From: Deferribacterales bacterium
GTDB taxonomy: Bacteria; Chrysiogenota; Deferribacteres; Deferribacterales; Geovibrionaceae
Length of the DNA: 64,000 nt
Assembly (NCBI GenBank): GCA_050253075.1
Contig: JBFWJS010000003.1
Span: 373,458 to 437,457, forward strand
Direction: 5' to 3'
The notes beneath the pieces were generated by a model. The model did not search any database. It was not told where the DNA came from and saw only the letters and a list, made by a program, of their open reading frames with translations. Positions 21,081 to 38,002 of the stretch are shown here, one piece after another. Made by a program: the position numbers and the translations under genes. Position 1 is the stretch's first letter. Each line of letters starts with the position of its first letter.

Positions 21081-21112
21081 AAAAAAAGGCGTATGCTGCT
21101 GCATACGCCTTT
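21081..21112. terminator. bidirectional intrinsic terminator
   Basis: A-run, AAAGGCGTATGC-TGCT-GCATACGCCTTT. Confidence 0.85.
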
Positions 21113-21138: not shown

Positions 21139-21468
21139 TTAACCACAAGTCTCAGGCTGATCTGAGTCAGCAGCGTGATCGAAGAGATATCTGAAAACAT
21201 CCTGCATGTCTTCTTGAGACTGGATGCCTTCCCATTTACCGCCGCAAGGAAGTTTTGCTGGGTTTGTGAATGCATCTTTCCACTGAGCCTGTGTGCGAGT
21301 AGCAGCACCAGCTTTAGCGCTGAGTTTTGTACCGTCTGCACATTTTGTGTGGTATCTTTTCCAAAGTCTTTTACCTTTTCTACCGTCACCAGCGTTGAAA
21401 TCCATAGCGAACACGTTTGTAGCCATGAAAACAACAGCGAGTACAACAAGCATAGCTTTCTTGAACAT
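21139..21468 (-). CDS. secreted cytochrome c-family-like protein lacking CxxCH
   Basis: Sec signal (VFA); GD.RKGK, TQAQW, YLFDHAADSDQPETC; 3 Cys, no CxxCH. Confidence 0.7.
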   Translation of the reverse strand: MFKKAMLVVLAVVFMATNVFAMDFNAGDGRKGKRLWKRYHTKCADGTKLSAKAGAATRTQAQWKDAFTNPAKLPCGGKWEGIQSQEDMQDVFRYLFDHAADSDQPETCG

Positions 21469-21554
21469 ATCAACTCTCCTTACTAAAACCAAATTAAATT
21501 GGTGTTTGTTTGAGGGTAATGTAGCACCTGATTTTTTTTATTTCAAGGGATTTT

Positions 21555-21570
21555 TGTATATTGTATACAA
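21555..21570 (-). promoter_or_regulatory. GTATAC operator next to a sigma70 promoter
   Basis: minus strand TTGTATACAATATACA, 8 bp upstream of TTGAAA-N17-TACATT. Confidence 0.7.
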
Positions 21571-21721
21571 TTTTCTGTATATTTTATTATTGGAGTATAT
21601 GTGTGTAAATATTAAATTGTTAGCATTGGATTTTTCGACTAAAATTATCCAGATTTCAGTAAACCTTGCTATGACAATAATGTAAAATAAGACAGAAAAT
21701 GTATCTTTCAGTTAGATTCCT

Positions 21722-21751
21722 TTGACAACGTGTAATTATTCACGGTATCTT
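21722..21751 (+). promoter_or_regulatory. sigma70 promoter with Rex-like palindrome in the spacer
   Basis: TTGACA-N18-TATCTT enclosing CGTG-TAATTATT-CACG. Confidence 0.5.
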
Positions 21752-21783
21752 TAATTATTGCATGCTAGATTGTGGAGGCGCAT

Positions 21784-22371
21784 ATGAAAAACGCAAAGTA
21801 TTTTGTATTATTTGCAGCATTGGTTCTAATCATTACAGTGCCTGTTGTGGGATTTTCTGAGGCTTCTGTTTCGGACGGGGAGAGGCTTGGCAAGACCTGT
21901 GCAGGCTGTCACGGAACATTCGGCAACACACCCGGTGAATATATCGGCAAGATCGGCGGACAGGGTGAAGCATATCTTTCGAAAGTCCTTAAAAGTTTTG
22001 CCGCAGGTGAAAGACCCGGCTCTATCGAAATGTCCATTATGGCTAAGGGCTATCAGACAGAACAGCTCGAATCCATCGCAATGTATTATGCCGCTCAGAA
22101 GTGGGTGAGCTCTACTAATGAAGTGGACGCTGCCAAAGCTGAAATGGGCGGAGCAATCTCTGCGGAGAACGGCTGCCTTGACTGTCACGGCGCAAACGGT
22201 GTCGGCATGGACGAATACCCTCGTATCGGTGGACAAAACAAAGGCTACCTCTTTGAGGTGCTTAAGCGCTACCGTGCAGGCCAGATAAAAGCTGACGAGA
22301 TGAACATGGTCGCAGATTTCAGTGACGAACAGCTCGAAGCTCTCGCAAACTATCTGACAAGTCTTAAGTAA
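21784..22371 (+). CDS. diheme c-type cytochrome (FccA-like subunit)
   Basis: signal peptide; CAGCH and CLDCH with distal Met residues. Confidence 0.88.
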   Translation: MKNAKYFVLFAALVLIITVPVVGFSEASVSDGERLGKTCAGCHGTFGNTPGEYIGKIGGQGEAYLSKVLKSFAAGERPGSIEMSIMAKGYQTEQLESIAMYYAAQKWVSSTNEVDAAKAEMGGAISAENGCLDCHGANGVGMDEYPRIGGQNKGYLFEVLKRYRAGQIKADEMNMVADFSDEQLEALANYLTSLK

Positions 22372-22383
22372 GAGGGGGATAAT

Positions 22384-23691
22384 ATGAGCATTTCCAGAAG
22401 AGATTTCATAAAATATACATCTGCCGCTGTTGCAGGCAGTGCTGTTTTCGGCTGTAAAAAGTCTGCTGACGAAGCGACTGCAAAGTCGACAGGTATCATC
22501 ATGCCCAAGACAGGTAAGAGGATTGTTGTCCTCGGCGGAGGGTGGGGCGGTGCTACCGCTGCCAAATATATAAAGCTGGAGGATCCGTCCATAGATGTTG
22601 TTATGGTTGAAAGACAGGAGAAGTTCATCTCCTGCCCTGTGAGCAACTGGGTAATCGGTGGATTTCGTAAAATGTCCGACATCACACTCGGCTATGAGCA
22701 GCTCGCAAAGAATTACGGTGTTAAAATACTCACCACCGAAGCTAGAGAGCTTGATGTCGAAGGCAAAAAGCTGAAAACAGACGCAGGTATCCTTGAGTAC
22801 GACCTTATACTCGTTTCACCGGGTATCTCATATAAATATGAGATGATCGAAGGGCTGAACAATCCTGAGGCCATAAAGATGTTCCCTGCTGCTATGAAGG
22901 CAGGTGTTGAGACAGTTATCCTTGCGGAGAAGCTGGCCGCAATGAAACCCGGCGGGTCTGTGCTTGTTGCCGTACCGCCGAAGCCTTACAGATGCCCTCC
23001 CGGACCTTACGAAAGAGTCTCGCTCATTGCGAACTATCTTAAAAAGAATAAGCCCGGGTCTAAGCTCTTTGTATTCGACTCCAACGATGATGTCGTTTCC
23101 AAAGGGCCTCTTTTCAAAGCTGCGTGGAAGGACTATTACAGTGACATTATAGAATATGTACCTGACAACTTTATCAAGTCTGTAGACGCTGCCACCGGCA
23201 AGATAGTTTCCGAACAGGGTGAGATAACCCCTGATGTGGCAAACATCATCCCCGCTATGAAGGCAAACCAGACAGCATTCGACCTCGGTCTTATGGATAA
23301 AGAGGACGATGACTGGGTTAGGGCTTATCCTAAGACTTTCGAGTCCTATAAATACGACACGGTACATGTTATCGGTGATGCGACACACAACGGAGCAGTG
23401 GGCGGCGTGCCTAAATCAGGCTATGTGGCAAACTCCATGGCAAAGGTTGCTGCGGTTCAGATGGTTAAAAAGCTGAACGGACAGGAATACATCGACCCTA
23501 CATATGTAAACACATGTTACTCTCTCGTTAATGAAGAAGAGGGAATATTCGTATCCGCAGTTTACTATTATGACCCTGCGATCGACAGAATCAGGTCACT
23601 TTCCGGTGGAGTTTCACCCACAAGAAATGCTCTTTTCGGAAAGCATGCTCAGGATTGGGCTACAAGCATATGGAGTGACATGCTCATTTAG
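22384..23691 (+). CDS. fccB: flavocytochrome c sulfide dehydrogenase flavoprotein (FccB/SoxF family)
   Basis: Tat SRRDFIK; GGGWGG; YRCPPGPYER; PKSGY.ANS.AK; NTCYSL. Confidence 0.88.
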   Translation: MSISRRDFIKYTSAAVAGSAVFGCKKSADEATAKSTGIIMPKTGKRIVVLGGGWGGATAAKYIKLEDPSIDVVMVERQEKFISCPVSNWVIGGFRKMSDITLGYEQLAKNYGVKILTTEARELDVEGKKLKTDAGILEYDLILVSPGISYKYEMIEGLNNPEAIKMFPAAMKAGVETVILAEKLAAMKPGGSVLVAVPPKPYRCPPGPYERVSLIANYLKKNKPGSKLFVFDSNDDVVSKGPLFKAAWKDYYSDIIEYVPDNFIKSVDAATGKIVSEQGEITPDVANIIPAMKANQTAFDLGLMDKEDDDWVRAYPKTFESYKYDTVHVIGDATHNGAVGGVPKSGYVANSMAKVAAVQMVKKLNGQEYIDPTYVNTCYSLVNEEEGIFVSAVYYYDPAIDRIRSLSGGVSPTRNALFGKHAQDWATSIWSDMLI

Positions 23692-23722
23692 TATCGATAA
23701 TTGTTCTTTATTATTAGATATT

Positions 23723-23755
23723 AAGAGAGGAGGCAAAATGTCTCCTCTCTTTTTT
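23723..23755 (+). terminator. intrinsic terminator after fccB
   Basis: AAGAGAGGAGGC-AAAAT-GTCTCCTCTCTT plus T-run. Confidence 0.85.
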
Positions 23756-23756
23756 A

Positions 23757-23772
23757 TTGTATACAATATACA
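23757..23772 (+). promoter_or_regulatory. GTATAC operator
   Basis: TTGTATACAATATACA, exact reverse complement of 21555-21570. Confidence 0.7.
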
Positions 23773-23858
23773 TTTTTCGCTCAAAATCCCTTTACAAATC
23801 TTTTAAAAAAAAATATATTCAGTAAAGATAACAGATTAGTGCGGACAGGTTTATTGTA

Positions 23859-24554
23859 ATGTTTATATATACTGATTTTAAAATGAACGTGATCGAAAAA
23901 AAGTTTGACGAGGCAAAGGCTTTGCTTGCTGATGTTCAGGTGGATGCAGAGACCTTCAGTGCCCTCTCAAATGTCTCCATGTTCCTGTCTCTTGTATTCA
24001 GATATCCTGACGACGACATTTATGACACACTTTCAGATAACTTTGACGCATTTAAAGACTTTATTTCAGATTATTCAGATGTTAATCCTGCCCTTTATGA
24101 TCAGACAGAGATGGAAAGCGACTACATTATGCTTTTCGAGCAGGATATGAATCACAAGCCCGTTGTTCCATATATCTCATACTTTACAGAAGAAAACAAA
24201 ATGCTCTATGGCAAGAGTACTTTCAAGATAAGAGAATGGATGGCTAGCGAGGGTTTCGCCCTTGAGAGTGACGTGACAGAGCTCGAAGACCACATCTATA
24301 TTGTGCTCGAGTTTATGTCTATGGTCTTTAGAAATCTCTCTGAGCCTGAAAATATCGAGAAGTGGTATGCGTCTCTGCATAACATTTATAATCTTCTTGA
24401 TAACTACGGTCCTGTAATAGCAAACGACTTCGCCTCTGCTGTTGCCGAGCGTGATGATAAGCCATTTTACAGAGACTTTGCCAAGATCCTTTCTGCTTTT
24501 GTTAAAGATATAGATCCTATCCTGGAGGACATCTTTACAGGAAGCGGAGAGTAA
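23859..24554 (+). CDS. TorD/DmsD-family molybdoenzyme maturation chaperone
   Basis: Y..LF....PY.SYF, ELEDHI...LEFM. Confidence 0.85.
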   Translation: MFIYTDFKMNVIEKKFDEAKALLADVQVDAETFSALSNVSMFLSLVFRYPDDDIYDTLSDNFDAFKDFISDYSDVNPALYDQTEMESDYIMLFEQDMNHKPVVPYISYFTEENKMLYGKSTFKIREWMASEGFALESDVTELEDHIYIVLEFMSMVFRNLSEPENIEKWYASLHNIYNLLDNYGPVIANDFASAVAERDDKPFYRDFAKILSAFVKDIDPILEDIFTGSGE

Positions 24555-24658
24555 GTAAGGACACATTAGAGGACAAATCTCAACGGCCCTCTATAAGCTC
24601 GTTTATCACTGTACATACAGGCAGTGCATAGACCCATATAAATACTAAGGAGTATTGT

Positions 24659-26482
24659 ATGAAGAAAATTGTATCTTTGATTCTTCTGGTTCTGTTCCCT
24701 GCATCTTTTGCATTTGCAGCGGACGTCACTCTTGAAGAACTGAAATCCCAGATTTCCTCTCTTCAGGATGAAGTACTTAAAATGTCTCGTCGCGTAGACA
24801 AAAACGAAGTTCACCGTATTAAAGATAAAGTTGATATCGGTGTAGAGCTTCGCTCCAGAGTCGACAGCATCTCTTATGATGACATGCTTGGACTTCCCGC
24901 TATGGCTAACGACATGATGGGGCTCTGGCTGAGAGACTATCTTGTTAACGATTCCGGTCCTGTTAATGACTGGGATGTTGACGGTGATGGTTTTAACGAT
25001 GCTTTTATGGCTACATACGGTGCTGATATGCAGGCACTTCTTATGCCTATGGCTCAGCAGATGGTTGCAGCAGATCCAACTATGGATATTAACACTGCTA
25101 TGAATGCTCTTTTCGGTGAGATGTATCAGATATTTGACTCAAATACCGTAACAAGCAGCCAGGCTGCAATGATGAAGGGCCTCTTCAACTCCATGAAGCC
25201 ACGCAAGTATGACCACAACAACAGCTCTATCTTTACAAACAAATTTAGAATTCGTCTTAACAGCTCTGTAAACGAGAACCTTTCTTTTACAGGTCGTCTT
25301 GCTATGTACAAAGTATGGGGCGATGCTACTGATGTTAGATGGAATAACGGTCAGTTTAACTCTATGTATCTCGATGGTAACGCTGCTGCTGTTCCTACAG
25401 ATGATAAAATCCACGTTGAAAGAGCTTACTTTGTTTACAAAAATGAGCTCGGTCCGGTAGACTGGCACCTTTCTCTTGGTAGAAGACCTTCTGCTTACGG
25501 CCCTGGTAAAGAAAGCTCTGAGTACTCCGGTCTCGGTGGTTCTCCTCTTGCTTCTATCATCCAGTGGAACTTCGACGGTGCTTCTCTCCAGTTCAACTTT
25601 GAGAACGTTTTCGAATTCCTTCCAGGTTCTTTCTTTAAAATCTGCTACGGTAGAGGATATGAATCTGATTGGGGCTCAAGCAACGCTTATGCTTCAAACA
25701 ACGGTCTTATCGCTACACCTGACGTAGACGACGTTGACCTTCTTGGTTTCATCGTTAAGTTCTACGATGATGATCAGTATAAATTCTGGTACAACTATTC
25801 TAGAGGCTTCGGTATGACTGACGGCTTCACAGGCGCAGTTGTTATGCCTTACGCTATCACAGGTATGGATTACAACCTTGACGGTCAATACGACGAATAT
25901 CAGTTTGATATGAACTCTTTCGGCTCTGCATCCAGAGTGGAAGCTACATCTAAAGTGGGTGACATGGAATGGCACTCTTTCATGGCTCAGGGTGAGACAT
26001 TCGGTTTTAACTGGTTTGCTTCTTACTCTCTGTCTAAATCTCACCCAGACGGTCAGTCTGCAAGTGCTATGTATCAGTTCATGGATATGGACAGAATGCT
26101 CGGCTCTAGAGACAGTGAGACAGGTCACAGTGTTTGGGTAGGTGTTATGACTCCTGAACTTCCATTTACAGGCGGTAAACTCGGATTCGAGTACAACCAA
26201 GGTTCTAAGTACTGGGTTGGTATGACAGGTGCTGAAGATGACCTCGTAGGCTCTAAAATCGCTGTTCGCGGTAAAGTTTACGACCTCTACTACCACCAGC
26301 CAATCGTGTCTGACAGACTGTTCATGACAGTTGGCTACCAGCACTTCGACTACGAATACACAGGCTCAGGTTCTTACCTTGGCGCTCCTGTGAAGATCGA
26401 AGACGCTACAGCTATGAACACTATGACAGCTGTTGCAGATAAAGTAGATAAATTCTACGCTTCTATGACATACAGATACTAA
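24659..26482 (+). CDS. DUF3373-type outer-membrane beta-barrel protein
   Basis: signal peptide, N-terminal coiled coil, GRLAMYKVWGD, VERAYF, SLGRRPS..G, G.EYNQGSKYW, C-terminal YRY. Confidence 0.8.
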   Translation: MKKIVSLILLVLFPASFAFAADVTLEELKSQISSLQDEVLKMSRRVDKNEVHRIKDKVDIGVELRSRVDSISYDDMLGLPAMANDMMGLWLRDYLVNDSGPVNDWDVDGDGFNDAFMATYGADMQALLMPMAQQMVAADPTMDINTAMNALFGEMYQIFDSNTVTSSQAAMMKGLFNSMKPRKYDHNNSSIFTNKFRIRLNSSVNENLSFTGRLAMYKVWGDATDVRWNNGQFNSMYLDGNAAAVPTDDKIHVERAYFVYKNELGPVDWHLSLGRRPSAYGPGKESSEYSGLGGSPLASIIQWNFDGASLQFNFENVFEFLPGSFFKICYGRGYESDWGSSNAYASNNGLIATPDVDDVDLLGFIVKFYDDDQYKFWYNYSRGFGMTDGFTGAVVMPYAITGMDYNLDGQYDEYQFDMNSFGSASRVEATSKVGDMEWHSFMAQGETFGFNWFASYSLSKSHPDGQSASAMYQFMDMDRMLGSRDSETGHSVWVGVMTPELPFTGGKLGFEYNQGSKYWVGMTGAEDDLVGSKIAVRGKVYDLYYHQPIVSDRLFMTVGYQHFDYEYTGSGSYLGAPVKIEDATAMNTMTAVADKVDKFYASMTYRY

Positions 26483-26508
26483 TCTGTACCTTAGAAGTTA
26501 ACATATTC

Positions 26509-26538
26509 AAAAGAGCAGCTCTCAGGGGCTGCTCTTTT
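26509..26538 (+). terminator. intrinsic terminator
   Basis: AAAAGAGCAGCTC-TCAG-GGGCTGCTCTTTT. Confidence 0.85.
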
Positions 26539-27032
26539 AATTTCAGGCAGTAGTTTTACGTTTAGAAAGAGATTTGTGTTTCGATCAATCTAAGGTGTTT
26601 TAAAAGCCGTTTTCCGGCTCCTGTTATACCTTAATATATATACTCATCTGAAAAGCTCTTTTGTGCCTGTTTAAATATTGGCATTTTGCTTGGGATGGCA
26701 GTGTGGTTTTGGTATCGGGTTTAGACAATAATCGCATTAAAAATATCATCATAAGGTGTGTATCTTTTTTATATTTTTTCTGCTTTTGAAACAGAAATCT
26801 TCTAATTTCCATATATATGATTTTATACATAAATAGTGTTATTATAAAGTCATGTTGTGCATAAAGAATTAAGAAATAAAACTCGTTTCACTGGTGGAAT
26901 TACCTAGTAAGTTAGTAGTAATAACTAACTTTTGAAAATGAGTAGAAATATTCTTTAACTACAGTAATATATGTAAAATTGAAAGTATAGAAAACATAGT
27001 TATAAAATCCGAGTTCAGGCAGAAAAAACTGC

Positions 27033-27076
27033 TTGCATTACAACCATATGCTATGTATATTGTATACCGTATACAA
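27033..27076 (+). promoter_or_regulatory. sigma70 promoter overlapped by three GTATA(C/T) heptads
   Basis: TTGCAT-N17-TATATT; TGTATAT TGTATAC CGTATAC AA at 27054-27076. Confidence 0.65.
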
Positions 27077-27140
27077 AAACTGAACTGGCAAAAGTTTGTA
27101 AATAACTGATGATGTTATTGAAATACTAGGAGGTCCCTAT

Positions 27141-29471
27141 ATGAAGCTTTCCGGTATGAATCTGAGTCGTAGAAAATTTCTTGCGGCTTCAGGCGGTGCA
27201 GTCGCTGCAGGGGTATTCGCTGCGAATCTTACTACCTTTAAAGCAGTGGCCAGCGATGGTCATGCGCCCGCACCTACTGGTGAAAAAGGCGAAAAGCACA
27301 TCGCATCCTCATGTGAGATGTGTGTAAACAAATGCGGCTTTTACGCCCATGTTGTTGACGGCAGAGTTAAGAAACTTAACCCAAACCCAAAGTTCTTCAA
27401 AAGCCGTGCTATGCTCTGTGCACGTGGTAACGCCGGTGCTGAAGAGCCTTACAACCCAGAGAGACTTACAACTCCTCTCCTCAGAGTAGGCGAGAGAGGC
27501 GAAGGTAAATGGAAAAAGATATCTTACGATGAAGCTTTCAAAATCCTCGCTGAGAAACTTGCTGAAAACAAGGTTAAGCATGAGAACAGATCTTCTGTAC
27601 TCTTCGCATCTTCCGAAGGTTTTCAGGAAGAGTGTTTCCACTACCTTGTGCAGTCTTACGGTTCTACTAACACCGTCAGACACCCCACTCTGTGTCTTTC
27701 ATCCGTAATTCAGGGTTGGTCTTCTGTTTACGGTGTTTTCCCTGATGCAGATATGCACAACGCTATGTTCGCTGTTATGTTCGGTGCTAACAGAGCTGAA
27801 GCTATCGTTACACCTGACACAATAGATATTCAGAAGAACAGACCGAAAGGTCAGCAGATCGTTTACCTTGACCCTAGATTTACTGCTACAGCTGCTAAAG
27901 CTGACAAGTGGTATCCTATCAAGCCTGGTACCGACCTCGCTTTCGTTCTCGCTCTTATCAACGTAATCATTACTGAGAAACTCTACAACGAGTCTTTCGT
28001 AAACCAATACACACACGGCTTCGACGAACTCGTAGCACACATCAAACAGTACACTCCTGAGTGGGCTGAGAATGAGACAGAGATTTCAGCTGCTGAGATC
28101 TACTGGACAGCTAGAGAATTCGCTAAGTATGCTCCACGTTCTATCGCATACCCTGGCCGTAGAACAAGCTGGTACGTGAACGACGTTTACTTCCGTCGTG
28201 CCTGCGCCATCCTTACAGCTATCTGCGGATGCTGGGATACAGAAGGCGGCATATGCCCTAAAGCTGGCGCTCCTATTAAGAACAAAGATCTTCTCTTCCC
28301 ATACTTCGAAATGTCTGAAGGCAGAATCGATGTCGGTTCATACGGCGAGTTCGATAACCACATGCCTGACGATGCCAGAAAAGAGCAGGGTCTTCCTAAA
28401 GATTCTTGTACATACGTTTCTGAGAAAGACGGCTCTTGGCTGCGCCTCAGAGAAGCTATCCTCAGAGGTACAGGCTACCCTGTGGATATGATGGTTATCT
28501 ACAAGCAAAACTTCATCGAAGCTGTTCCTAACAGACAGAAGACAATGAAGATGATAGACAAGATGAACTTCATCTGTGCTATCGATATCCAGATGACAGA
28601 GGTTGCTCACTTTGCTGACCTCGTTATCCCAGAGTCCACATACCTTGAGCGTTGGGACTCTGTACACTCACTCGCAGGTATCTGGCCGATCGCAACATTC
28701 CGTCAGCCTGTTGTTGAGCCTGTATTCAAGACTAAGTCCATGTTCGAGATCGCAGCAGGCGTTGTTAACGAAATGCTGAAGATCCCTGAGCTTTGGGACG
28801 ATGCTGATGAGATGGAAGTTGACGATTTCAAATCTGAGATCGTAGACGGAATGCTCAACAAGCCTATGTCTGAATACATCAAATACCAGCTTTCCGGTCA
28901 CCCCGGTGCTTACGAGCAGATGATGAAAGAAGGCGTCTTCTACATGTCTGACAAGCCTAAATACGGCAACACACGTAAGCCTGGTTTCAGATTTAAGACA
29001 AGAACAGGTAAAATAGAGCTTGCTAACGTTAAATACCCAGGCGAAGGTCTTGATGCGCTTCCAACATACGCAGCGCCTCGTCAGCCTGAACCGGGTAAAT
29101 TCCGTTTCATACTCGGCCGTCACGGATGGAACACACACTCCGGTACACAGAACAACGAGTTCCTCTGGGAAATCCAGAAGGTCAACACTCTCTGGATCAA
29201 CACAGTTTCTGCTAAGAAACTCGGCATAATGAACGGAGACAAAGTAAAGGTTAAGTCAAGTGTCGGTGAGCAAGAGATCGAAGCTTACGTGACAGAGAAG
29301 ATACGCCCTGACTGCGTATTCTACGCTCACGGTTTCGGACGTCTCTCTCCACAGCTTAGCCTTGTGTACAAAAAAGGTGCTTCACAGGCAGAGATCCTCG
29401 AAGATTACATCGAGCCAATCTCTGGTAACGCTGCTCTGCACGAAACATTTGTAACAATCACTAAGGCTTAA
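27141..29471 (+). CDS. molybdopterin oxidoreductase catalytic subunit, PsrA/PhsA/SrrA clade
   Basis: Tat SRRKFL; CEMCVNKC...LCARG [4Fe-4S]; HPTLC (Cys Mo ligand); 776 aa. Confidence 0.88.
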   Translation: MKLSGMNLSRRKFLAASGGAVAAGVFAANLTTFKAVASDGHAPAPTGEKGEKHIASSCEMCVNKCGFYAHVVDGRVKKLNPNPKFFKSRAMLCARGNAGAEEPYNPERLTTPLLRVGERGEGKWKKISYDEAFKILAEKLAENKVKHENRSSVLFASSEGFQEECFHYLVQSYGSTNTVRHPTLCLSSVIQGWSSVYGVFPDADMHNAMFAVMFGANRAEAIVTPDTIDIQKNRPKGQQIVYLDPRFTATAAKADKWYPIKPGTDLAFVLALINVIITEKLYNESFVNQYTHGFDELVAHIKQYTPEWAENETEISAAEIYWTAREFAKYAPRSIAYPGRRTSWYVNDVYFRRACAILTAICGCWDTEGGICPKAGAPIKNKDLLFPYFEMSEGRIDVGSYGEFDNHMPDDARKEQGLPKDSCTYVSEKDGSWLRLREAILRGTGYPVDMMVIYKQNFIEAVPNRQKTMKMIDKMNFICAIDIQMTEVAHFADLVIPESTYLERWDSVHSLAGIWPIATFRQPVVEPVFKTKSMFEIAAGVVNEMLKIPELWDDADEMEVDDFKSEIVDGMLNKPMSEYIKYQLSGHPGAYEQMMKEGVFYMSDKPKYGNTRKPGFRFKTRTGKIELANVKYPGEGLDALPTYAAPRQPEPGKFRFILGRHGWNTHSGTQNNEFLWEIQKVNTLWINTVSAKKLGIMNGDKVKVKSSVGEQEIEAYVTEKIRPDCVFYAHGFGRLSPQLSLVYKKGASQAEILEDYIEPISGNAALHETFVTITKA

Positions 29472-29482
29472 CGGAGGCAACA

Positions 29483-30037
29483 ATGAGCGAAAAGAAATAC
29501 GGAATTGTATTAGATGCTAGAAAATGCCTGAACTGTAAAGCATGTACTGTTGCCTGCAAATTCGAAAACGGCGTTCACCCCGGTGACGACTCATACAGAA
29601 TTTGGGTCACAGAAAAGCCTGTTCAGGGAACTTTTCCTAACCTCAGCATGGAATTTGAGCCATCTCAGTGCCAGCACTGTGAAAATACACCTTGTGCGAC
29701 AGTATGTCCTACTTCTGCTACTTACAAGACAGAAGAGGGCGTTGTACTCATCGACTACAAAAAGTGTATCCTTTGCAAGGCTTGTATGACAGCATGTCCA
29801 TACGATGCGAGATTCGACTCTCATGCACACCATGCAATAGAAAAATGTACACTCTGCTACCACAGACTGGCTGAAGGCAGAGAGCCTGCATGTGTTGAAA
29901 CATGCCCAACGAAGGTACGTACATTCGGCGATCTTAACGATCCAAACTCAGAAGTAGCAAAACTCAAAGGCGAGAACCACACTTACCAGCTTAAAGCTGA
30001 TAAAGGCACTCACCCTAGACTTTTCTACATCAAGTAA
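29483..30037 (+). CDS. 4x[4Fe-4S] electron-transfer subunit (PsrB/NrfC-like)
   Basis: CLNCKACTVAC, CQHC...C...CP, CILCKACMTACP, CTLC...C...CP. Confidence 0.93.
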   Translation: MSEKKYGIVLDARKCLNCKACTVACKFENGVHPGDDSYRIWVTEKPVQGTFPNLSMEFEPSQCQHCENTPCATVCPTSATYKTEEGVVLIDYKKCILCKACMTACPYDARFDSHAHHAIEKCTLCYHRLAEGREPACVETCPTKVRTFGDLNDPNSEVAKLKGENHTYQLKADKGTHPRLFYIK

Positions 30038-30052
30038 GGCGGAGGATTAATA

Positions 30053-31264
30053 ATGTCAGCACACGCAGAAACAAAGAAAAGCCCACTCGCTGGACTTATC
30101 ACTTACAATAAAGATATTCCTGTAATGCCGCTTATTTTTCTCGGCCTTGTACTCGCAGGAATAGGCGCTGTCACAGCCCTTATGGTTTTCATAAAGGGTC
30201 ACGGCGAAATGTATGGAGTTACACGTCAGGTTCCATGGGGAATGCTCATCGGTACTTACGCTTACTTCGTAATTACATCTACAGGTCTCGCTTTCATAGG
30301 CGGTCTCGGACACGCTTTCGGATTTGAGGCTTATAACAAAATAAGCAGAAGAATCGTTGTACTTGCTACATTCGTTCTTCTCGCAGGTTTCACACAGATC
30401 CTTATGGAGATCGGACACCCTATCAGAATGATCATCTACATGATGCTCTCTCCAAACCTGAAAGCTCCGATCCTCTGGATGGGTGTGTTCTACTCTATCG
30501 AGCTTGTTATCCTTGCTCTTGAGCTTCTGGTTGTTTTCAAAGCTCACCCGACAGAGAAGGATCACAAAATGGCTGGTATCCTCGGATTCCTCGCACTTGT
30601 AGTGGGTACACTCGCTACATCTAACCTTGGTTTCGTTTTCGGTTCTCTGAATGCAAGACCTTGGTTCCACGGAATCTACTTCTCCACATTCCTTGTAATA
30701 TCAGGTATCGTGGCTGGAGCCGGTCTCCTTATGCTCGTACACAACATCGTCTACAAGTTCAACGTACCTGCTGAACTCGACAAGACAATGAAAGCCCTCG
30801 CTAAGCTCATGGGCGGCGGTATAGGCATGATGGCATTCCTTTACCTCTGGAAGATACTTACATCTCTGTTCAATGCTCCTCTCGGCGCATACGAGTCAGT
30901 TATGGCACTTATCTCCGGCCCGCTTGCTGTAAACTTCTGGGTAGGCGAGATGGGACTTGCTATCATAGTTCCGCTTCTTCTCCTTATCGTAGCCAAAGGC
31001 AACACAAAGATATACGGCCTCGCAGGTCTTATCTACATGGTTGGTCTTTTCTTCACAAGATTTGACTTTATCGTTGCCGGCCAGCTCCCTGTAATGAGAG
31101 AAGGCTTCGAAGGTTCTAACGTTATAACTGACGCTAGCGGCCTTGCTCAGTACACAGCATCAGCAGGTGAGTGGGGAATATTCCTGCTCGGTATAGGTAC
31201 TGCACTAGTGCTCTATTTCGCAGCTGAGAAATTCCTTGATCTCAAAACACCTGAGCATCATTAA
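30053..31264 (+). CDS. NrfD/PsrC-family membrane anchor
   Basis: VPWG..I..Y.YF, EIGHP.R, polytopic, RFDFIVAGQ. Confidence 0.9.
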   Translation: MSAHAETKKSPLAGLITYNKDIPVMPLIFLGLVLAGIGAVTALMVFIKGHGEMYGVTRQVPWGMLIGTYAYFVITSTGLAFIGGLGHAFGFEAYNKISRRIVVLATFVLLAGFTQILMEIGHPIRMIIYMMLSPNLKAPILWMGVFYSIELVILALELLVVFKAHPTEKDHKMAGILGFLALVVGTLATSNLGFVFGSLNARPWFHGIYFSTFLVISGIVAGAGLLMLVHNIVYKFNVPAELDKTMKALAKLMGGGIGMMAFLYLWKILTSLFNAPLGAYESVMALISGPLAVNFWVGEMGLAIIVPLLLLIVAKGNTKIYGLAGLIYMVGLFFTRFDFIVAGQLPVMREGFEGSNVITDASGLAQYTASAGEWGIFLLGIGTALVLYFAAEKFLDLKTPEHH

Positions 31265-31286
31265 TAGCTAAAGCTATCAAACATAT

Positions 31287-31315
31287 AAGGCAGCCTTCGG
31301 GCTGCCTTTTTTTTT
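31287..31315 (+). terminator. intrinsic terminator
   Basis: AAGGCAGCC-TTCG-GGCTGCCTT plus T-run. Confidence 0.92.
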
Positions 31316-31332
31316 GCAAAAAATCTAGCAGA

Positions 31333-31376
31333 TTGTATACAATAAACATTGCACTAAGTATAATATGGTGTATAAT
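31333..31376 (+). promoter_or_regulatory. GTATAC operator abutting a sigma70 promoter
   Basis: TTGTATACAATAAACA, then TTGCAC-N16-TATAAT; extra CTGTATACAG at 31494-31503. Confidence 0.68.
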
Positions 31377-31563
31377 CAAACTGTTGTTGAAAATAATAAT
31401 CCGTGAGTGTGGATCTCTAAGCGATTGTTATTAAAACAATAATATGCAAGTATAGAGAAATATGAATACTCAAATATAAGAGTATTTGAATATCTGTATA
31501 CAGCGAATATAACATTGTTATAGGTAAAGTAGCAAGAATCATTAGAAACGTTGGAGGTTGTAT

Positions 31564-32751
31564 ATGCGTTTTATGAGCAGAATGCTTACTGTTGTTGCAC
31601 TTATGATTACCCTTATGGTGCTTGGTTGTGGTCAGGCAGCCAAAGAACCTGCGAAAGCAGCTCCTATGAGCGTAGCTGATCAAGCTAAGGCTGCTGGTTT
31701 TGAGATCGTTGATCTCGCAGAAGCTAAAATGATCGTTGGTAACGGAGTATGGGACAAAGCAAGAGGTACTCTTGTTGATGCTCGTCCAGAAAGAAAATTC
31801 GACGAAGGTCACATCCCTACATCTAAACTTATCCCAGATACAAAATTCGATGAATTCTTCCCTGCATTTGCAAAAGAAGTCGGCACAGGTGACTATATCG
31901 TTACTTTCTGCGGCGGTCTTAAATGTGAGAAGTCTCTCATCGTAGCTGAGAAACTCAGAGAAAAAGGTTACAAGAACGTTAAGATATTCCTCGCCGGTCA
32001 GCCTGCTTGGAACAAATCCGGTTCTTACAACGAAGTTTCCCTTGCCGGTGCTCAGAAGCTCCACGCTAAAGGCGCAACTTTTATCGATGCACGCCCAGAG
32101 CGTAAGTTCAAAGGCGGCACAATACCTGGTTCTGTTGTAGTTCCAGATACAAAGTTTGACGCTTTCAAAGGCAACCTTCCTGCAGATAAAGCTGCTGTTG
32201 CAGTTCCTTTCTGTGGCGGTTACAAATGTGAGAAGTCTCACATCGTAGCTGAGAAGATGCTTGAAATGGGTTACACAAATATCCTCGTATACGCTGGCGG
32301 AGAGCCAGAGTGGAAAGCTGCCGGTCTTCCTATAGCTCCTGGCGGCGAAGCTCCTGTTGCTAAGAAAGAAGTTGCTGCTTCTACTGCAGGTTATCCTGTT
32401 GAAGAGCCTGGCATCATCAAAACTGACTTCTTCATCGCTAGCATCCTTGATCCTGCTACACGTCCGGCTAACGTAACAATCGTTGACGTACGTAACGACA
32501 ACGAAGTAGCTGCAGGCAAGATCCCCGGTTCACTCCATGTTTCTTCTAAAGAAACAGCTAACGGTTGTGACGCTTTCCTCGCTAAAATGCCAAAAGAAGG
32601 CAACGTGATCTTCCACTGTGCTTCCGGCGGTAGAGCAGGAGAGACTTACTTCTTCCTCGCTGACGATTGCAAACCTGCAGACATCAGCAGATACTACTTC
32701 CTTGATGCTGGCGTTAACTGTGACAGCCAGCCATGTAAAATCGGTAACTAA
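31564..32751 (+). CDS. three-domain rhodanese (sulfurtransferase) lipoprotein
   Basis: lipobox VLGC; DARP..GHIP; two FCGGxKCEKS loops; third domain DVR..GKIPG..HCASGGRA. Confidence 0.9.
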   Translation: MRFMSRMLTVVALMITLMVLGCGQAAKEPAKAAPMSVADQAKAAGFEIVDLAEAKMIVGNGVWDKARGTLVDARPERKFDEGHIPTSKLIPDTKFDEFFPAFAKEVGTGDYIVTFCGGLKCEKSLIVAEKLREKGYKNVKIFLAGQPAWNKSGSYNEVSLAGAQKLHAKGATFIDARPERKFKGGTIPGSVVVPDTKFDAFKGNLPADKAAVAVPFCGGYKCEKSHIVAEKMLEMGYTNILVYAGGEPEWKAAGLPIAPGGEAPVAKKEVAASTAGYPVEEPGIIKTDFFIASILDPATRPANVTIVDVRNDNEVAAGKIPGSLHVSSKETANGCDAFLAKMPKEGNVIFHCASGGRAGETYFFLADDCKPADISRYYFLDAGVNCDSQPCKIGN

Positions 32752-33929: not shown

Positions 33930-34544
33930 ATGTCAGATCAAAGATGCTGTAAACTTTCGGAAAAAAAGCGTGAAGATATCCTCGATGCTGCCTCACGTCT
34001 TTTTCTGGATAAGGGGTACGGCAATGTTTCAATGGATGAGGTAGCTCAGAAGGCAAACGTCTCAAAACGTACGGTATACAACCATTTCGCATCGAAAGAG
34101 ATACTCTTCGGCGAGATAGTGCGCCTTACATGGGACGGGATAGCCCAGCCTCTCCTTATACTTGATGACAAGGACGATATCAGAAATGTTCTGAAATCCT
34201 ACACTCTCAATGCGCTGAAAATGCTCCGTTCAGAGAAATTCAGCAAAATGCTCCGCCTTGTGATAGGCGAATCGGGCAATTTCCCCGAGCTCAGCAGTTT
34301 GTATTCCGAGCATGGGGTAAAGACCATCCTCTCCAGCATCGAGGAATACTTCATAGCCCTGAACGATACGGGCAAGCTGAAGATACCTGAGCCGGCCTTA
34401 GCAGCTCAGCAGTATGTAGGAATGGTGAAAGAATCCCTCTTCTGGCCGGTGCTTTTGGGTGTGTTTAAACAGCCGACGCCGGAGCGCGACATCCAGGTAA
34501 TAGATGCCGCCATCGACATTATCTATCAGATATATTCTATTTAA
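33930..34544 (+). CDS. TetR/AcrR family regulator
   Basis: F...GY..VSMDEVA..ANVSKRTVYNHF.SKE. Confidence 0.95.
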   Translation: MSDQRCCKLSEKKREDILDAASRLFLDKGYGNVSMDEVAQKANVSKRTVYNHFASKEILFGEIVRLTWDGIAQPLLILDDKDDIRNVLKSYTLNALKMLRSEKFSKMLRLVIGESGNFPELSSLYSEHGVKTILSSIEEYFIALNDTGKLKIPEPALAAQQYVGMVKESLFWPVLLGVFKQPTPERDIQVIDAAIDIIYQIYSI

Positions 34545-35661
34545 ATACCGAAAGAAAAACACCCGCAGCAATAGCACTCCCTATAACACCGGCGACGTTT
34601 GGCGCCATTGCGTGCATTATGAGGAAGTTGTTCGGGTCTTCCTTTGCGCCTACCACCTGACAAACTCTCGCTGAGTCGGGCACGGCGGATACTCCTGCGG
34701 CTCCGATGATGGGGTTCACAGGCTTTTTGCTCACCCAGTTCATCACCTTCGCAGCAAGCACTCCCGATGCAGTCGCCACACAGAACGACCCCGCCCCCAG
34801 CGCAAATATCTTTATGGAATCAGGCGTGAGAAATCTGCTGGCATCCGTGCTGAGCCCCACAGTGAAGCCGAGCAGTATGGTGACTATGTCTATCAGTGCG
34901 GCTCTGGCCGTGTTCGCCAGCCTTTCTGTCACTCCGCATTCCTTCAGCAGATTGCCGAAGAACAGCATACCGAGGAGCGTTATCGCACCCGGTGCTATGA
35001 GGGTGGTCAGGGTGAATGCAACTATTGGGAACATAATTCGTAGACGTTTGCTCACAGGCTTCGAAGGCTGCATGCGGATAAGGCGTTCCTTCTTAGTGGT
35101 TAACAGCTTTATTATCGGCGGCTGTATAACAGGCACGAGAGCCATGTATGAATACGCCGCAATGGCTATCGCACCGAGGTAGTCTGGCGCCATCTTACTG
35201 GATAGGAATATAGCCGTCGGACCGTCAGCACCGCCTATGATGCCTATGGCGGCGGCATGTTCTGTGCTGAAGCCGAGGTATATAGAGCCGATGAATGTTA
35301 TGAATATGCCAAACTGTGCCGCTGCGCCCAGTATTATAAGGCGTGGGTTAGACAGCATGCATGAGAAGTCTGTCATGGCTCCGATGCCGAGGAATATCAG
35401 AGGAGGGTAAAAGCCCTGTGATACACCCTGATACAGTATCGAAAACACACTGCCTGCCTCGTATACGCCGATGTTCAGCCCCGGTGCATAGGGGATATTA
35501 CCCACGAGGATACCGAAGCCGATGGGCACGAGCAGGAGCGGTTCGTAGTCTTTCTTTATAGCCAGATACAGGAAGATGCATGCGACGGTCATCATGAGCA
35601 GGTTCCCCAGACTCAGGTTTCCGAATGCGCCCCCCTGTAGAAACTGTAATATTATGTCCAT
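34537..35661 (-). CDS. mmdB: Na+-transporting decarboxylase beta subunit (OadB/MmdB)
   Basis: EPLLLVPIGFG, IIGGADGPT, AYSYMALVP, AGVSAVP. Confidence 0.9.
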   Translation of the reverse strand: MDIILQFLQGGAFGNLSLGNLLMMTVACIFLYLAIKKDYEPLLLVPIGFGILVGNIPYAPGLNIGVYEAGSVFSILYQGVSQGFYPPLIFLGIGAMTDFSCMLSNPRLIILGAAAQFGIFITFIGSIYLGFSTEHAAAIGIIGGADGPTAIFLSSKMAPDYLGAIAIAAYSYMALVPVIQPPIIKLLTTKKERLIRMQPSKPVSKRLRIMFPIVAFTLTTLIAPGAITLLGMLFFGNLLKECGVTERLANTARAALIDIVTILLGFTVGLSTDASRFLTPDSIKIFALGAGSFCVATASGVLAAKVMNWVSKKPVNPIIGAAGVSAVPDSARVCQVVGAKEDPNNFLIMHAMAPNVAGVIGSAIAAGVFLSVFK

Positions 35662-35664
35662 ATT

Positions 35665-36072
35665 TTACTCGTATTCTATGAGGGTTTGTCCTTCGCGGAT
35701 GTTGTCCCCTTTATTCACAGGTACTGCTTTCACTTTTCCGTCGGCGGGAGCCGCTATGGATGTCTTCATCTTCATAGCTTCCAGTATCATCACGATGTCT
35801 CCCTCTTTCACAACGTCCCCTGCGGAGCACTTAACCTCGAGCACGATACCTGCGATGGGGCTTGTGACGGCTCCGCTGGCATCGGCTGATGCCTTTGGTG
35901 AACGTGAAGGTGGCTTCGGCAGAGCAGAAGGCGATCTAACCTGTGAAGAGGCGTCCTGTGGCTGAGCCTGAGGCATATATGGGAGTGCGGTGGGATACAT
36001 ATCTCCGCCGTCGTCTAATACTTCAACATCTACTTCGTATGCGATACCGTGTACGGTTATTTTCAGCTTCAT
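35665..36072 (-). CDS. mmdC: biotin carboxyl carrier subunit
   Basis: EAMKM biotinylation site, Pro/Ala linker. Confidence 0.88.
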   Translation of the reverse strand: MKLKITVHGIAYEVDVEVLDDGGDMYPTALPYMPQAQPQDASSQVRSPSALPKPPSRSPKASADASGAVTSPIAGIVLEVKCSAGDVVKEGDIVMILEAMKMKTSIAAPADGKVKAVPVNKGDNIREGQTLIEYE

Positions 36073-36083
36073 ATATATCTCCG

Positions 36084-36437
36084 TTATTTCTCTGTTTTTA
36101 CATTTAATACGTGTGAGCCGTGGAGAACACTGCGTCCCTCCATTGTCCATCCTGCGATCTTAGCATCTCTGCTGACAACCCTGCGTACCGAGCGTATACG
36201 AAAGCTCCTCTGCTGCAGGGCTGCTGATGCGGCAGCGGATATCAGCACAAGGGTAAGGTTGTCTATGGTCTGCTCGGGTTCGGGCTCGGGTGCGTTTCTC
36301 GCTTCTTTCCTTTCGGTCATCTTTTCGTCTATGGTACGCATAAGGCTGATGGCAAAGGCGATGAGTATCAGCGATGCGAAAACAATCAGCATCCCCGCCA
36401 GACTCAGTTTTAGAGCGTAGTTTAACTCAGGTGTCAT
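36084..36437 (-). CDS. mmdD: OadG/MmdD-family small subunit
   Basis: GM.IVF..L TM segment, ISAA, W...GR. Confidence 0.8.
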   Translation of the reverse strand: MTPELNYALKLSLAGMLIVFASLILIAFAISLMRTIDEKMTERKEARNAPEPEPEQTIDNLTLVLISAAASAALQQRSFRIRSVRRVVSRDAKIAGWTMEGRSVLHGSHVLNVKTEK

Positions 36438-36448
36438 AATATCTTTCC

Positions 36449-38002
36449 TTACAGCGGGATGAGCCCGTGTTTTTTCTGCGGACGCATCTCCCGCTTTGTT
36501 CGCAGAGCTTCCAGTGCGGATATAACCGCCATCTTTGTCTCTGCAGGGTCTATAACGTCGTCCACATACCCTCTGCCTGCGGCGGCATATGGATTTGTGA
36601 ATGCTATTTTGTATTCCTTCGTCTTTTCTTCCATCAGTTCTTTCGGGTCGAAGGCTTCCTTTATCTCTTTGCTGTAAAGGATGCTGGCTGCGCCCTCTGC
36701 GCCCATGACGGCTATCTCTGCGGTCGGCCATGCATAGACCCTGTCTGCGCCCATTTCCTTAGAACACATGGCGAGGTATGCACCGCCGTATGCCTTGCGC
36801 ACTATGATGGTCACCTTCGGCACTGTGGCAGCACCGTATGCGAACAGCATCTTTGCACCGTGGCGGATGATGCCTCCGTATTCCTGATCTACCCCGGGCA
36901 TAAAGCCCGGAACGTCTACGAATGTCAGCAGAGGTATGTTGAAAGCGTTGCAGAAGCGTATGAACCTCGCCGATTTGTCTGATGAGTCTATGTCCAGAAC
37001 GCCCGCTTTGACAAACGGCTGATTCGCCACTACGCCGACGGTTCTCCCCGACATTCTGGCGAAGCCTATGAGGATGTTCGGTGCGAAGTGTTCCTGTATT
37101 TCTAGGAAGTCTCCGCCGTCTACGATATTGTGTATCACCTCGTGCATGTCGTATGGCTCTTTCGGGTCTTCGGGGATGAGGTTTCTGAGGTGTCCCTCGG
37201 GCTGAAGTATATTTTCCGCCGTATTATGGAAAGAGGGCGGTTCTTCGGTATTGTTACTCGGCAGGAACGAGAGCAGGCGTTTACACAGAGACATGGCGTC
37301 CTGTCCGTTTTTAGCGGTGAAGTGTACCACGCCTGAATAGTGCGAATGGCTCTCAACACCGCCGAGCTCCTCTGAGGATACTTCCTCGCCTGTGACCTGC
37401 TTTATCACGGACGGCCCTGTGATGAACATCTGCCCCTCGTGCTCTATCTGTATGATGAAGTCAGTGAGGGCAGGGGAATATGCCGCTCCGCCCGCACAGG
37501 GGCCCGCTATTATGCTCACCTGCGGCACAACGCCCGATAGGAGTACATTGCGGTAGAAGATGTCTCCGTATCCTGAAAGGGCATCTACGCCCTCCTGAAT
37601 ACGGGCACCGCCCGAGTCGTTTATGAAAACGAACGGATCGCCTGTTTTCAAAGCCTGATCCATAACGTCTGCTATCTTTTTAGCCGTCATTTCTCCGACG
37701 GAACCGCCTGCTACGGTAAAGTCCTGACTGGCAGCGTATACTATCCTGCCGTCTACGCTCCCCATCCCGGTGACAACCCCTTCACCGGGGAATTCTTTAT
37801 CTGTCATGCCGAAATTGGTGCACCTGTGGCGCATGAAGAGCCCGTGTTCCTGAAAGGTTTCAGAGTCGAAGAGGAGTGCCAGACGTTCTCTGGCGGTGAG
37901 CTTCCCTGCGCTGTGCTGTTTGTCGATCTTGTCTTTGCCTCCGCCCTGATAGGCCTCGGCACGTTTCTTGAAAAGTGTGTTCAGTTTTTCTTTGTTACTC
38001 AT
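36449..38002 (-). CDS. mmdA: acyl-CoA carboxyltransferase, methylmalonyl-CoA decarboxylase alpha subunit
   Basis: GKLTARER, DSGGARIQEG, GPCAGGA, DVPGF, RKAYGGAY, KKHG.IPL; operon with mmdDCB. Confidence 0.88.
   Translation of the reverse strand: MSNKEKLNTLFKKRAEAYQGGGKDKIDKQHSAGKLTARERLALLFDSETFQEHGLFMRHRCTNFGMTDKEFPGEGVVTGMGSVDGRIVYAASQDFTVAGGSVGEMTAKKIADVMDQALKTGDPFVFINDSGGARIQEGVDALSGYGDIFYRNVLLSGVVPQVSIIAGPCAGGAAYSPALTDFIIQIEHEGQMFITGPSVIKQVTGEEVSSEELGGVESHSHYSGVVHFTAKNGQDAMSLCKRLLSFLPSNNTEEPPSFHNTAENILQPEGHLRNLIPEDPKEPYDMHEVIHNIVDGGDFLEIQEHFAPNILIGFARMSGRTVGVVANQPFVKAGVLDIDSSDKSARFIRFCNAFNIPLLTFVDVPGFMPGVDQEYGGIIRHGAKMLFAYGAATVPKVTIIVRKAYGGAYLAMCSKEMGADRVYAWPTAEIAVMGAEGAASILYSKEIKEAFDPKELMEEKTKEYKIAFTNPYAAAGRGYVDDVIDPAETKMAVISALEALRTKREMRPQKKHGLIPL

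Follow-up and report, generated by a model that had tools for sequence, protein, structure and literature searches.

In Wolinella succinogenes, the polysulfide reductase PsrABC works with the rhodanese Sud as sulfur carrier. A related set has been described in Desulfurivibrio dismutans, whose psr operon (RS06465-RS06490) encodes a hypothetical protein (345 nt, 114 aa), torD, psrA, psrB, psrC and a triple rhodanese (PMC12142623). The passage of insoluble sulfur or polysulfide through the outer membrane to such periplasmic reductases is a standing question, and a paper on Sulfurovum states that membrane proteins for the transport of elemental sulfur (S0) lack experimental confirmation (PMC10045233). 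In this study, we have analysed a 64,000-nt stretch of a Deferribacterales genome (assembly GCA_050253075.1, contig JBFWJS010000003.1; hereafter the window), in which nine intact open reading frames (ORFs) within 21139-32751 encode a small exported protein that we call CytX, the flavocytochrome FccAB, a TorD-type chaperone, a DUF3373 outer-membrane protein, PsrABC and a triple-rhodanese lipoprotein. The reading that we favour, with a probability of roughly 0.6, is that this one locus encodes a vertically inherited periplasmic system for polysulfide (sulfane-sulfur) respiration that is wired into the global acetate and tricarboxylic acid (TCA) energy regulon. Family identities, co-occurrence, operator sites and co-induction in another organism are its basis, and from these we infer the substrate, the direction of the reaction, the carrier chemistry and the regulator. 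To the question of outer-membrane passage the locus offers a porin family and a small partner protein.

The catalytic A subunit has the MopB matches PF04879, PF00384 and PF01568, and its sequence places it, within the DMSO reductase superfamily, in the PsrA/PhsA/SrrA lineage. The preliminary description of this DNA had called it a Psr/Srr-type enzyme, and that assignment, as opposed to Arr, Ttr or Dms, agrees with its NCBIfam scores (PhsA 500.7 bits, DmsA 254, ArrA 208, TtrA 88) and with its PDB matches, the best of which is Thermus PsrA (2vpw; E 6.6e-106, 358.8 bits, against 168 bits for ArrA). The cysteine of its catalytic site aligns with that of 2vpw, which is presumably the molybdenum ligand. 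As expected of the lineage, the operon adds a four-cluster B subunit and an NrfD/PsrC anchor. We also built a quick tree of 46 rows, in which the outgroups have long branches and Wolinella PsrA, Salmonella PhsA and SrrA are not included; it, too, keeps the A subunit in this lineage and out of any unrelated DMSO-reductase clade. There it stands in a starred 15-row clade with P0053 (Deferribacter desulfuricans SSM1 by source label), sister to a clade of paralogs and apart from both enteric PhsA and the Psr clade linked to ExtH/ExtI; the branching follows host families. The paralogous psrABC set lies behind a DUF134 gene, without the operator described below, in the loci L002, L010, L014-L020 and L049; in L049 it has taken the place of the usual A, B and C genes of the cluster, and the A gene of the L002 set is interrupted by an in-frame stop. 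The host genome also holds an orphan psrB-psrC-like pair (C2:351466-354136), preceded not by a molybdoenzyme gene but by one for a 259-aa twin-arginine protein, and the anchor of this pair is 63% identical to the PsrC of the window.

The DUF3373 protein has a signal peptide and an aromatic C-terminal residue, as in general porins. Its AlphaFold2 model, made from 35 sequences, is a beta-barrel (predicted local distance difference test, pLDDT, 77; predicted template modelling score 0.76) that matches OmpM1 (8bym; Z 22.3, root-mean-square deviation, rmsd, 3.9 over 301), PorB (3a2s; Z 22.3, rmsd 3.5 over 298) and the anion-selective Omp32 (Z 21.3), with Foldseek in agreement; we take these matches to be of the 16-stranded, trimeric type. 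The protein is predicted, then, to fold as a general porin, in line with the outer-membrane barrel first proposed for it. A profile search gave no match of DUF3373 to the model of ExtI, the porin of a Geobacter system, and a predicted complex of DUF3373 with CytX (score 0.02, mark 0.32) bears neither way on binding. The family has been tabulated as a putative outer-membrane pore (TCDB 1.B.60, Omp50, and 1.B.62), where 1.B.60 includes Deferribacteres and its row prints "DUF373" (PMC4827864).

CytX had been described as a periplasmic cytochrome-like protein. Export and membership of a cytochrome c-like family both stand; the heme does not, as the protein has no CxxCH motif, and it also matches no Pfam or NCBIfam model. 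In its family (748 clusters at E<=0.001) the heme motif is intact in most members, and the Atlas matches are named monoheme cytochrome c (score 0.92). The CytX model is confident (pLDDT 85), and all its top fold matches are cytochromes c, weakly so, the best (2fwt; Z 6.0, rmsd 2.6, 62 residues) being within the range of common arrangements. In the alignment CytX keeps Cys43, Cys75 and a C-terminal Cys108 in an HAxDSxQPxxCG tail. The window protein and its orthologs in the genera g1 and g4 retain, of the two heme cysteines, the second alone, plus a further mid-chain cysteine, and similar heme-less forms exist in Desulfobacterota. From a census of 149 listed family proteins we dropped 15 long ones; among the remaining 134, the HAxDS tail is present in 79, with a C-terminal cysteine in 65 of these 79, and the heme motif is missing in 11 of the 79, several being fragments. 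We suggest that a disulfide may replace the heme in the window protein, and that the C-terminal cysteine may be a sulfur carrier. An MtrAB-like electron conduit was rejected, since CytX has one heme at most and none in the window protein. The CytX of most Deferribacterales (L005, L011, L013, L043-L047, L057, L058, L062) has an unusual CxxxCH in place of CxxCH, and one Desulfobacterota genome carries six CytX-like genes within 10 kb (G273:C223:37703-47240).

The distribution of these genes was followed in 41 genomes of the order, 16 of them from the family of the host; because kin are not independent, the counts for order and family are descriptions and not tests. DUF3373 and the triple rhodanese are matched in one and the same set of 30 of the 41, PsrA in 29 and FccB in 27, and all 16 family genomes match each of the four, so their co-conservation, on which the preliminary description had staked its case, is seen within the family. 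In four other families torD-cytX-DUF3373 forms an operon of its own. Outside the order, 17 genome loci anchored on DUF3373 have cytX adjacent in 15, a gene for an octaheme protein resembling octaheme tetrathionate reductase (OTR) in seven and psrA in two. This octaheme neighbour matches PDB 1sp3 (E 1.1e-59), which we take to be the Shewanella OTR. Among 80 metagenome loci anchored on cytX, the best of 346 matches, DUF3373 occurs in 64 (27 of the 28 that span at least 6 kb), a MopB A gene in 27 and an OTR-like gene in 5; all 27 A genes are closest to the window Psr among ten references. A sample of 401 Desulfobacterota genomes contains cytX in 44. We retrieved 20 loci, chosen among the strongest of 56 listed matches, and these hold psrA (10), a multi-rhodanese gene (9), an OTR-like gene (8) or torD (7), with a Psr-type A or OTR-like gene in 16 of the 20. 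Judged by these neighbourhoods, the widely conserved unit is CytX plus the DUF3373 porin plus either this Psr subclade or an OTR-like protein, and CytX with DUF3373 is a cross-phylum gene pair that had been overlooked in the first description.

Published expression data point the same way. In D. dismutans grown on S8, compared with formate plus nitrate, the five largest log2 increases in Table S1 are +8.9 for the 114-aa hypothetical protein, +8.1 for DUF3373, +7.8 for PsrA, +7.6 for PsrB and +7.5 for the rhodanese, and the sixth protein, among those with a fold change in that table, stands at +4.9 (PMC12142623). The expected co-induction is therefore seen in another phylum, where the DUF3373 protein rises with Psr and the triple rhodanese on S0. 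The hypothetical protein, RS06490, is CytX-like in size and position, and the gene order is that of several Desulfobacterota loci; a cluster look-up of ten CytX-family members of 112-118 aa found no RS06490 accession. In Dissulfuribacter growing by thiosulfate disproportionation, one of the most abundant proteins belongs to the DUF3373 family (PMC13490349). In Deferribacter, three S0 respirers have two psr clusters that are missing in D. thermophilus, which has no sulfur respiration (PMC13186404).

The units of the locus also have a regulatory site in common. Four intergenic copies of an 18-nt site family lie at 21559, 23755, 27058 and 31331, and across the window the 8-base core TGTATACA has 7 copies where 0.81 would be expected; in 100 shuffles this number of copies was reached 0 times. 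We write the site as the dyad GTATAC-N-GTATAC, a register chosen after the window sites and the Geobacter gltA site (PMC2817479) had been seen. A matrix built solely from the four window sites gave 38 genome matches above the threshold of 12 bits. The 13 best outside the cluster lie 5' of sdhC, a GltD/SfrB-like gene, acnB, the actP region, trxA, a gntR gene, icd, a sodium/solute symporter, ATP synthase a and b', nuoA, an NCS2 permease and fumA; the citrate synthase gene gltA has a weak site. The shared operator that had been reported is thus real in its four copies, and an island-specific operator is rejected, because the same site precedes TCA, complex I and ATP synthase genes across the genome. 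With at most 2 mismatches allowed in <=350 nt upstream (background, 11 of 499 random upstream regions), it stands 5' of 20 of the 21 psrA genes of >=64% identity, the lone exception being a second copy, and of none of eight psrA paralogs at 53-58% identity. It also precedes 17 of 22 torD genes, including those of the unlinked torD-cytX-DUF3373 operons of the four other families, and 8 of 22 cytX genes, and none of the operon-internal genes (0/17 fccB, 0/26 psrB, 0/28 psrC, 0/23 DUF3373). This distribution suggests that sulfur respiration in Deferribacterales is switched by a central acetate regulon.

The dyad stands before TCA, complex I and ATP synthase genes, as do the sites of the Geobacter HgtR regulon. 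A weak motif scan of the host genome for the HgtR protein was negative, with five weak ribbon-helix-helix matches in the genome. Two tandem GntR-family genes (C8:71447-72802) have a triple operator repeat upstream and occur as a pair in 30 of the 41 order genomes, in the same five families; going by this context, they are our best candidate for the regulator of an HgtR-like regulon. A perfect copy of the operator (window 12504-12516) lies between an actP-like acetate symporter unit (10323-11876, minus strand) and a gene for 628 aa (12653-14539) that has no NCBIfam match at 1e-10.

In our model, polysulfide formed from S0 outside the cell would enter the periplasm by way of the DUF3373 porin. 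Sulfane sulfur would be held on cysteines of CytX and of the triple-rhodanese lipoprotein, which has a cysteine in all three active-site loops (two CGGxxC, one CASGGR), and be passed to PsrA; the role of the rhodanese is proposed by analogy with Sud, and that of CytX because its C-terminal cysteine is conserved. PsrABC, matured by the TorD-type chaperone, would then reduce the terminal sulfur to HS- with electrons that reach the quinone pool from acetate oxidation, a chemistry taken from what is established for Psr and applied here through family membership. The units would be expressed alongside acetate-oxidising respiration, as expected from the operator that they have in common with TCA, complex I and ATP synthase genes. 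When a high-potential acceptor such as nitrate or oxygen is present, FccAB would re-oxidise sulfide to polysulfide, most likely as an accessory. The host genome, which is 99.89% complete, has no match to the YeeE/YedE sulfur transporter family (PF04143). In two other families, an eight-heme cytochrome gene lies 3' of the triple-rhodanese gene (L083:4885-6366, L088:7694-9172), and the one cytochrome that was compared matches the octaheme tetrathionate reductase family below its cut-off.

A wider proposal, which we put forward tentatively and with somewhat less than even confidence, is that DUF3373 and CytX form a dedicated outer-membrane import and hand-off module for sulfane sulfur that occurs in Deferribacterota, Desulfobacterota, Acidobacteriota and Gammaproteobacteria and supplies two S-S reductases unrelated to each other, the Psr subclade and the OTR-like octaheme protein. 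CytX would be a carrier by means of a C-terminal cysteine arm, so that its heme would be dispensable and would have been lost more than once, the lineage of the host being one case; in the family of the host, module, reductase and FccAB would have come together under the master acetate/TCA operator.

Several observations weigh against polysulfide respiration by this locus, or against parts of it. The substrate cannot be read from a Psr or Phs sequence (PMC13047784, PMC13186404), and the A subunit, at 500.7 bits, lies below the NCBIfam cut-off of 694 for PhsA (NF012032). In Denitrovibrio acetiphilus, Seleniivibrio woodruffii, Flexistipes and Calditerrivibrio, published type strains with psrABC have a negative score for S0 reduction, and alternative acceptors are suggested by the authors (PMC6896113). 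At E<=1e-60, psrA has no match in two genomes of 99% completeness (G018, G023) that do retain DUF3373 and the rhodanese; in G037 the situation is reversed. DUF3373 adjoins cytX in only 10 of the 20 Desulfobacterota loci. In D. dismutans the DUF3373 gene is not linked to psr (PMC12142623), and RS06490 is equated with CytX only by size and position. The operator precedes only 8 of 15 rhodanese genes, one of them a single-domain paralog, and 1 of 5 further unlinked rhodanese orthologs.

The oxidative direction is the first alternative: PsrABC in reverse and FccAB would both turn sulfide into polysulfide in the course of nitrate or microaerobic respiration, as a means of detoxification or of gaining energy, and porin, CytX and rhodanese would export or buffer the sulfane sulfur produced. 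Wolinella Psr can run in reverse. FccAB has the central and flavin-binding domains, the two active-site cysteines and the adjacent diheme cytochrome of a flavocytochrome c sulfide dehydrogenase (FccB: PF21706 128 bits, PF09242 69 bits; PDB 5n1t E 4.7e-87; sulfide:quinone reductases only at E about 1e-10), and both cysteine motifs are retained in 19 of 19 ortholog rows, in a protein found throughout the family. The host also has a NapA-like gene (TIGR01706, E 1.8e-77, below cut-off) and two genes for subunit I of the heme-copper oxidase family (oxidase or NO reductase), and several relatives are nitrate reducers scored S0-negative (PMC6896113). We nevertheless regard this explanation as unlikely. 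The core exists without FccAB in families f3 and f4 (FccB 0/8 at E<=1e-30) and in 78 of the best 80 metagenome loci, Deferribacter autotrophicus has psr clusters and cannot oxidise sulfide (PMC6896113), and the D. dismutans proteins, abundant on S8, occur in small amounts on formate plus nitrate (PMC12142623). With two occurrences in those 80 loci, none in the 20 Desulfobacterota loci and none in f3 and f4, FccAB is rejected as an obligatory part of the core; it is a lineage add-on. Because it lies outside the conserved core, the coupling of oxidative and reductive arms that the preliminary description had drawn is not supported as an obligate one. FccB has a lipobox-like cysteine behind its twin-arginine leader (22384-22460) in genera g1-g3, absent in g4, and may be a lipoprotein of the twin-arginine pathway.

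It is less probable still that the enzyme in reality acts on a soluble S-S oxyanion, either thiosulfate or a polythionate, instead of polysulfide. The octaheme neighbours of CytX-DUF3373, the abundance of DUF3373 in Dissulfuribacter on thiosulfate and PhsA as the best NCBIfam match of the A subunit would all fit such a substrate. The A subunit is, however, only 29.6% identical to the PhsA of an E. coli plasmid and stands in a separate clade, and together with its score this led us to reject membership of the enteric thiosulfate reductase PhsABC; D. autotrophicus respires S0 and not thiosulfate (PMC6896113), and the induction of the D. dismutans proteins by S8 is strong.

A closed catalytic sulfur cycle in the periplasm, in which Psr reduces polysulfide with quinol and the resulting sulfide is oxidised again by FccAB, with the cytochrome c pool as acceptor, so that trace sulfur shuttles electrons with no net S0 respiration, seems to us very improbable. 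It would explain why the cluster is kept in strains that do not grow on S0 and under a housekeeping energy operator, and in genera g1 and g4 fccA and cytX are indeed under a common operator in 8 of 8 loci. Against this, none of the 8 fccA genes of other genera and families has the operator (overall, 8 of 16 have it), and the electron transfer from quinol to polysulfide is uphill for ordinary menaquinone by established redox potentials. FccAB is also unlinked in 6 of the 16 family genomes: it is physically linked to the Psr genes in 10 (the host genome, L001, L003, L004, L005, L011, L012, L013, L049 and L002, where L049 is counted with a 54% paralog as A subunit and L002 is seen from fccB onward, with a second psr set inserted), apart from them in five (G006, G010, G012, G014, G015) and unassignable in one fragmented assembly (G009).

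Least probable of all is a respiratory selenite reductase like SrrABCDEF of Bacillus selenitireducens, for which the enzyme lineage is the same (PMC10100899, PMC7331816), Srr has a 43-kDa anchor (403 aa in the window), a chaperone and rhodaneses (PMC12481199), and Seleniivibrio woodruffii has homologs of CytX and the triple rhodanese, since the module occurs in 30 of the 41 order genomes and in several phyla, is S8-induced in D. dismutans (PMC12142623), and in relatives stands apart from the selenite-linked ExtH/ExtI porin-rhodanese cluster with its different Psr clade, while tblastn with ExtH, ExtI and OTR-like queries found no match in the host genome at E<=1e-5 and selenite, one of the substrates first proposed, gained no positive evidence past the shared architecture.

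Returning to polysulfide respiration as the preferred reading, the layout of the locus is given in Table 1. The genes had been listed as one contiguous block, and this is what we find: all nine are present with their named families matched, and the identities of porin, FccAB, TorD-type chaperone, molybdoenzyme ABC and triple rhodanese are confirmed by Pfam or NCBIfam matches. A single operon is rejected, because terminator-like hairpins split the block into five transcription units: cytX on the minus strand, fccAB, torD-DUF3373, psrABC and the rhodanese gene.

Table 1. Genes, terminator-like hairpins and operators of the locus (window positions).
Feature	Position	Strand	Remarks
Terminator-like hairpin closing the cytX unit	21085..21112	.	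12-bp stem, scored on both strands
CytX, exported, 109 aa	21139..21468	-	unnamed class-I cytochrome c-like family; heme motif lost in window lineage
Operator 1, between divergent cytX and fccA	21556..21568	.	GTATAC-N-GTATAC dyad, 1 mismatch
FccA, diheme cytochrome c, signal peptide	21784..22371	+	two CxxCH, PF00034; ATG start read from sequence (ORF finder: GTG 21772)
FccB, flavocytochrome c sulfide dehydrogenase flavoprotein	22384..23691	+	twin-arginine leader, both active-site Cys motifs
Terminator-like hairpin 3' of fccB	23723..23751	+	hairpin scan
Operator 2, 5' of torD-DUF3373	23759..23771	.	dyad, 1 mismatch; conserved in orthologs
TorD/DmsD-family chaperone	23859..24554	+	PF02613, E 6e-19; under NCBIfam TorD cut-off
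DUF3373 outer-membrane beta-barrel	24659..26482	+	PF11853, E 1.6e-145; N-terminal coiled coil, helical insert (residues 81-177), predicted general-porin fold
Hairpin and T-run 3' of DUF3373, probable terminator	26510..26538	+	read by eye; not listed by hairpin scan
Operator 3, 5' of psrA	27055..27074	.	two overlapping dyads (1 and 0 mismatches); top genome score; ortholog conservation
PsrA-type molybdo-bis(pyranopterin guanine dinucleotide) catalytic subunit	27141..29471	+	twin-arginine leader; motif for cluster FS0; in alignment with Thermus PsrA, Cys at ligand position
PsrB, four-cluster ferredoxin subunit	29483..30037	+	profile matches (4Fe-4S)
PsrC/NrfD-type membrane anchor, 403 aa	30053..31264	+	PF03916, E 2.5e-26
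Terminator-like hairpin 3' of psrC	31287..31308	+	hairpin scan
Operator 4, 5' of rhodanese gene	31335..31347	.	dyad, 2 mismatches
Triple-rhodanese lipoprotein	31564..32751	+	PF00581 in 3 stretches; lipobox-like Cys near N-terminus

The word island, in the sense of gene transfer, does not hold for this block. Its GC content is ordinary (0.41-0.47, against 0.41-0.52 across the window), an ORF that we named rpsT-like by eye flanks it in 7 of 13 loci of the same family, the A-subunit tree follows host families, and the genes are found in 16 of 16 family genomes, all of which led us to reject horizontal acquisition. Based on composition, flanks and tree, we regard the locus as inherited parts assembled at a stable site. 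The closest named homologs of the cluster proteins are labelled Denitrovibrio, Seleniivibrio, Limisalsivibrio and Geovibrio, and Rfam gave no match at gathering score between 20800 and 33000. Elsewhere in the window (34537-38002), genes that we named by eye from their translations resemble a sodium-pumping carboxyl-CoA decarboxylase set (membrane beta subunit, biotin carrier, carboxyltransferase), and the host genome has a multiheme cytochrome gene cluster (C3:111890-130009) in which one gene has 28 CxxCH motifs.

Three lines of evidence connect DUF3373 and CytX with sulfur reductases, namely gene neighbourhood across several phyla, the operator shared by five families and joint induction on S8 in published proteomics (PMC12142623), and they make the two proteins testable candidates for the route of sulfur to the enzyme. 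DUF3373 thereby gains a probable job in sulfur respiration. Retention of the whole set in strains scored unable to respire S0 raises a puzzle of its own. In a literature search, mostly outside subscription journals, we did not find the DUF3373-CytX pair, its link with Psr or OTR-like proteins, or the operator on sulfur genes described. The combination of Psr, TorD and triple rhodanese is already described (PMC12142623), and a porin with a rhodanese has been proposed for polysulfide in the order with other porin families.

Reductase, chaperone, rhodanese and FccAB are all of known kinds. Thermus thermophilus PsrABC (2vpw) has the same molybdenum-containing A subunit with its cysteine ligand position, four-cluster B subunit and NrfD-type C subunit. 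Compared with Thermus and Wolinella Psr, the window enzyme belongs to a distant subclade (359 bits to 2vpw) with a longer anchor, and porin, CytX and FccAB are added; its rhodanese is a three-domain lipoprotein, unlike the single-domain Sud. SrrABCDEF of B. selenitireducens, compared by its description, has the same A, B and C subunits, chaperone and rhodaneses and belongs to the same lineage, in a Gram-positive host without a porin (PMC12481199). In TCDB, DUF3373 stands as a putative pore under 1.B.60 and 1.B.62, with no substrate or link to sulfur respiration in the row (PMC4827864). The Geobacter HgtR regulon has a near-identical site, and 9 of its 13 named genes, the nine that were compared, recur here (acnB, icd, sdhC/frdC, ATP synthase b', nuoA, sfrB-like, gntR, fumA and, weakly, gltA), the other four being oorD, ato, nad and iolE; it differs in that the published list has no sulfur genes and that here the candidate regulator is a tandem GntR pair with a triple site (PMC2817479). 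The D. dismutans psr operon is alike in PsrA, PsrB, PsrC (NrfD), TorD and triple-rhodanese lipoprotein, with the 114-aa hypothetical protein first and S8 induction together with DUF3373, whereas its DUF3373 gene lies elsewhere, the porin passage of the paper names RS05170, the main text has no FccAB term, and the organism disproportionates sulfur with Dsr (PMC12142623). Some relatives of the host (L075, L076, L077, L079, L089, L090) have a separate set of ExtH-like rhodanese, ExtI porin and 10-12-heme cytochromes with a distinct Psr clade. Finally, Geobacter ExtH/ExtI with MccSep has the same design as our locus, a porin, a rhodanese lipoprotein and a periplasmic polysulfide reductase, realised with another porin family and with a multiheme selenoenzyme instead of a molybdoenzyme (PMC13510729).

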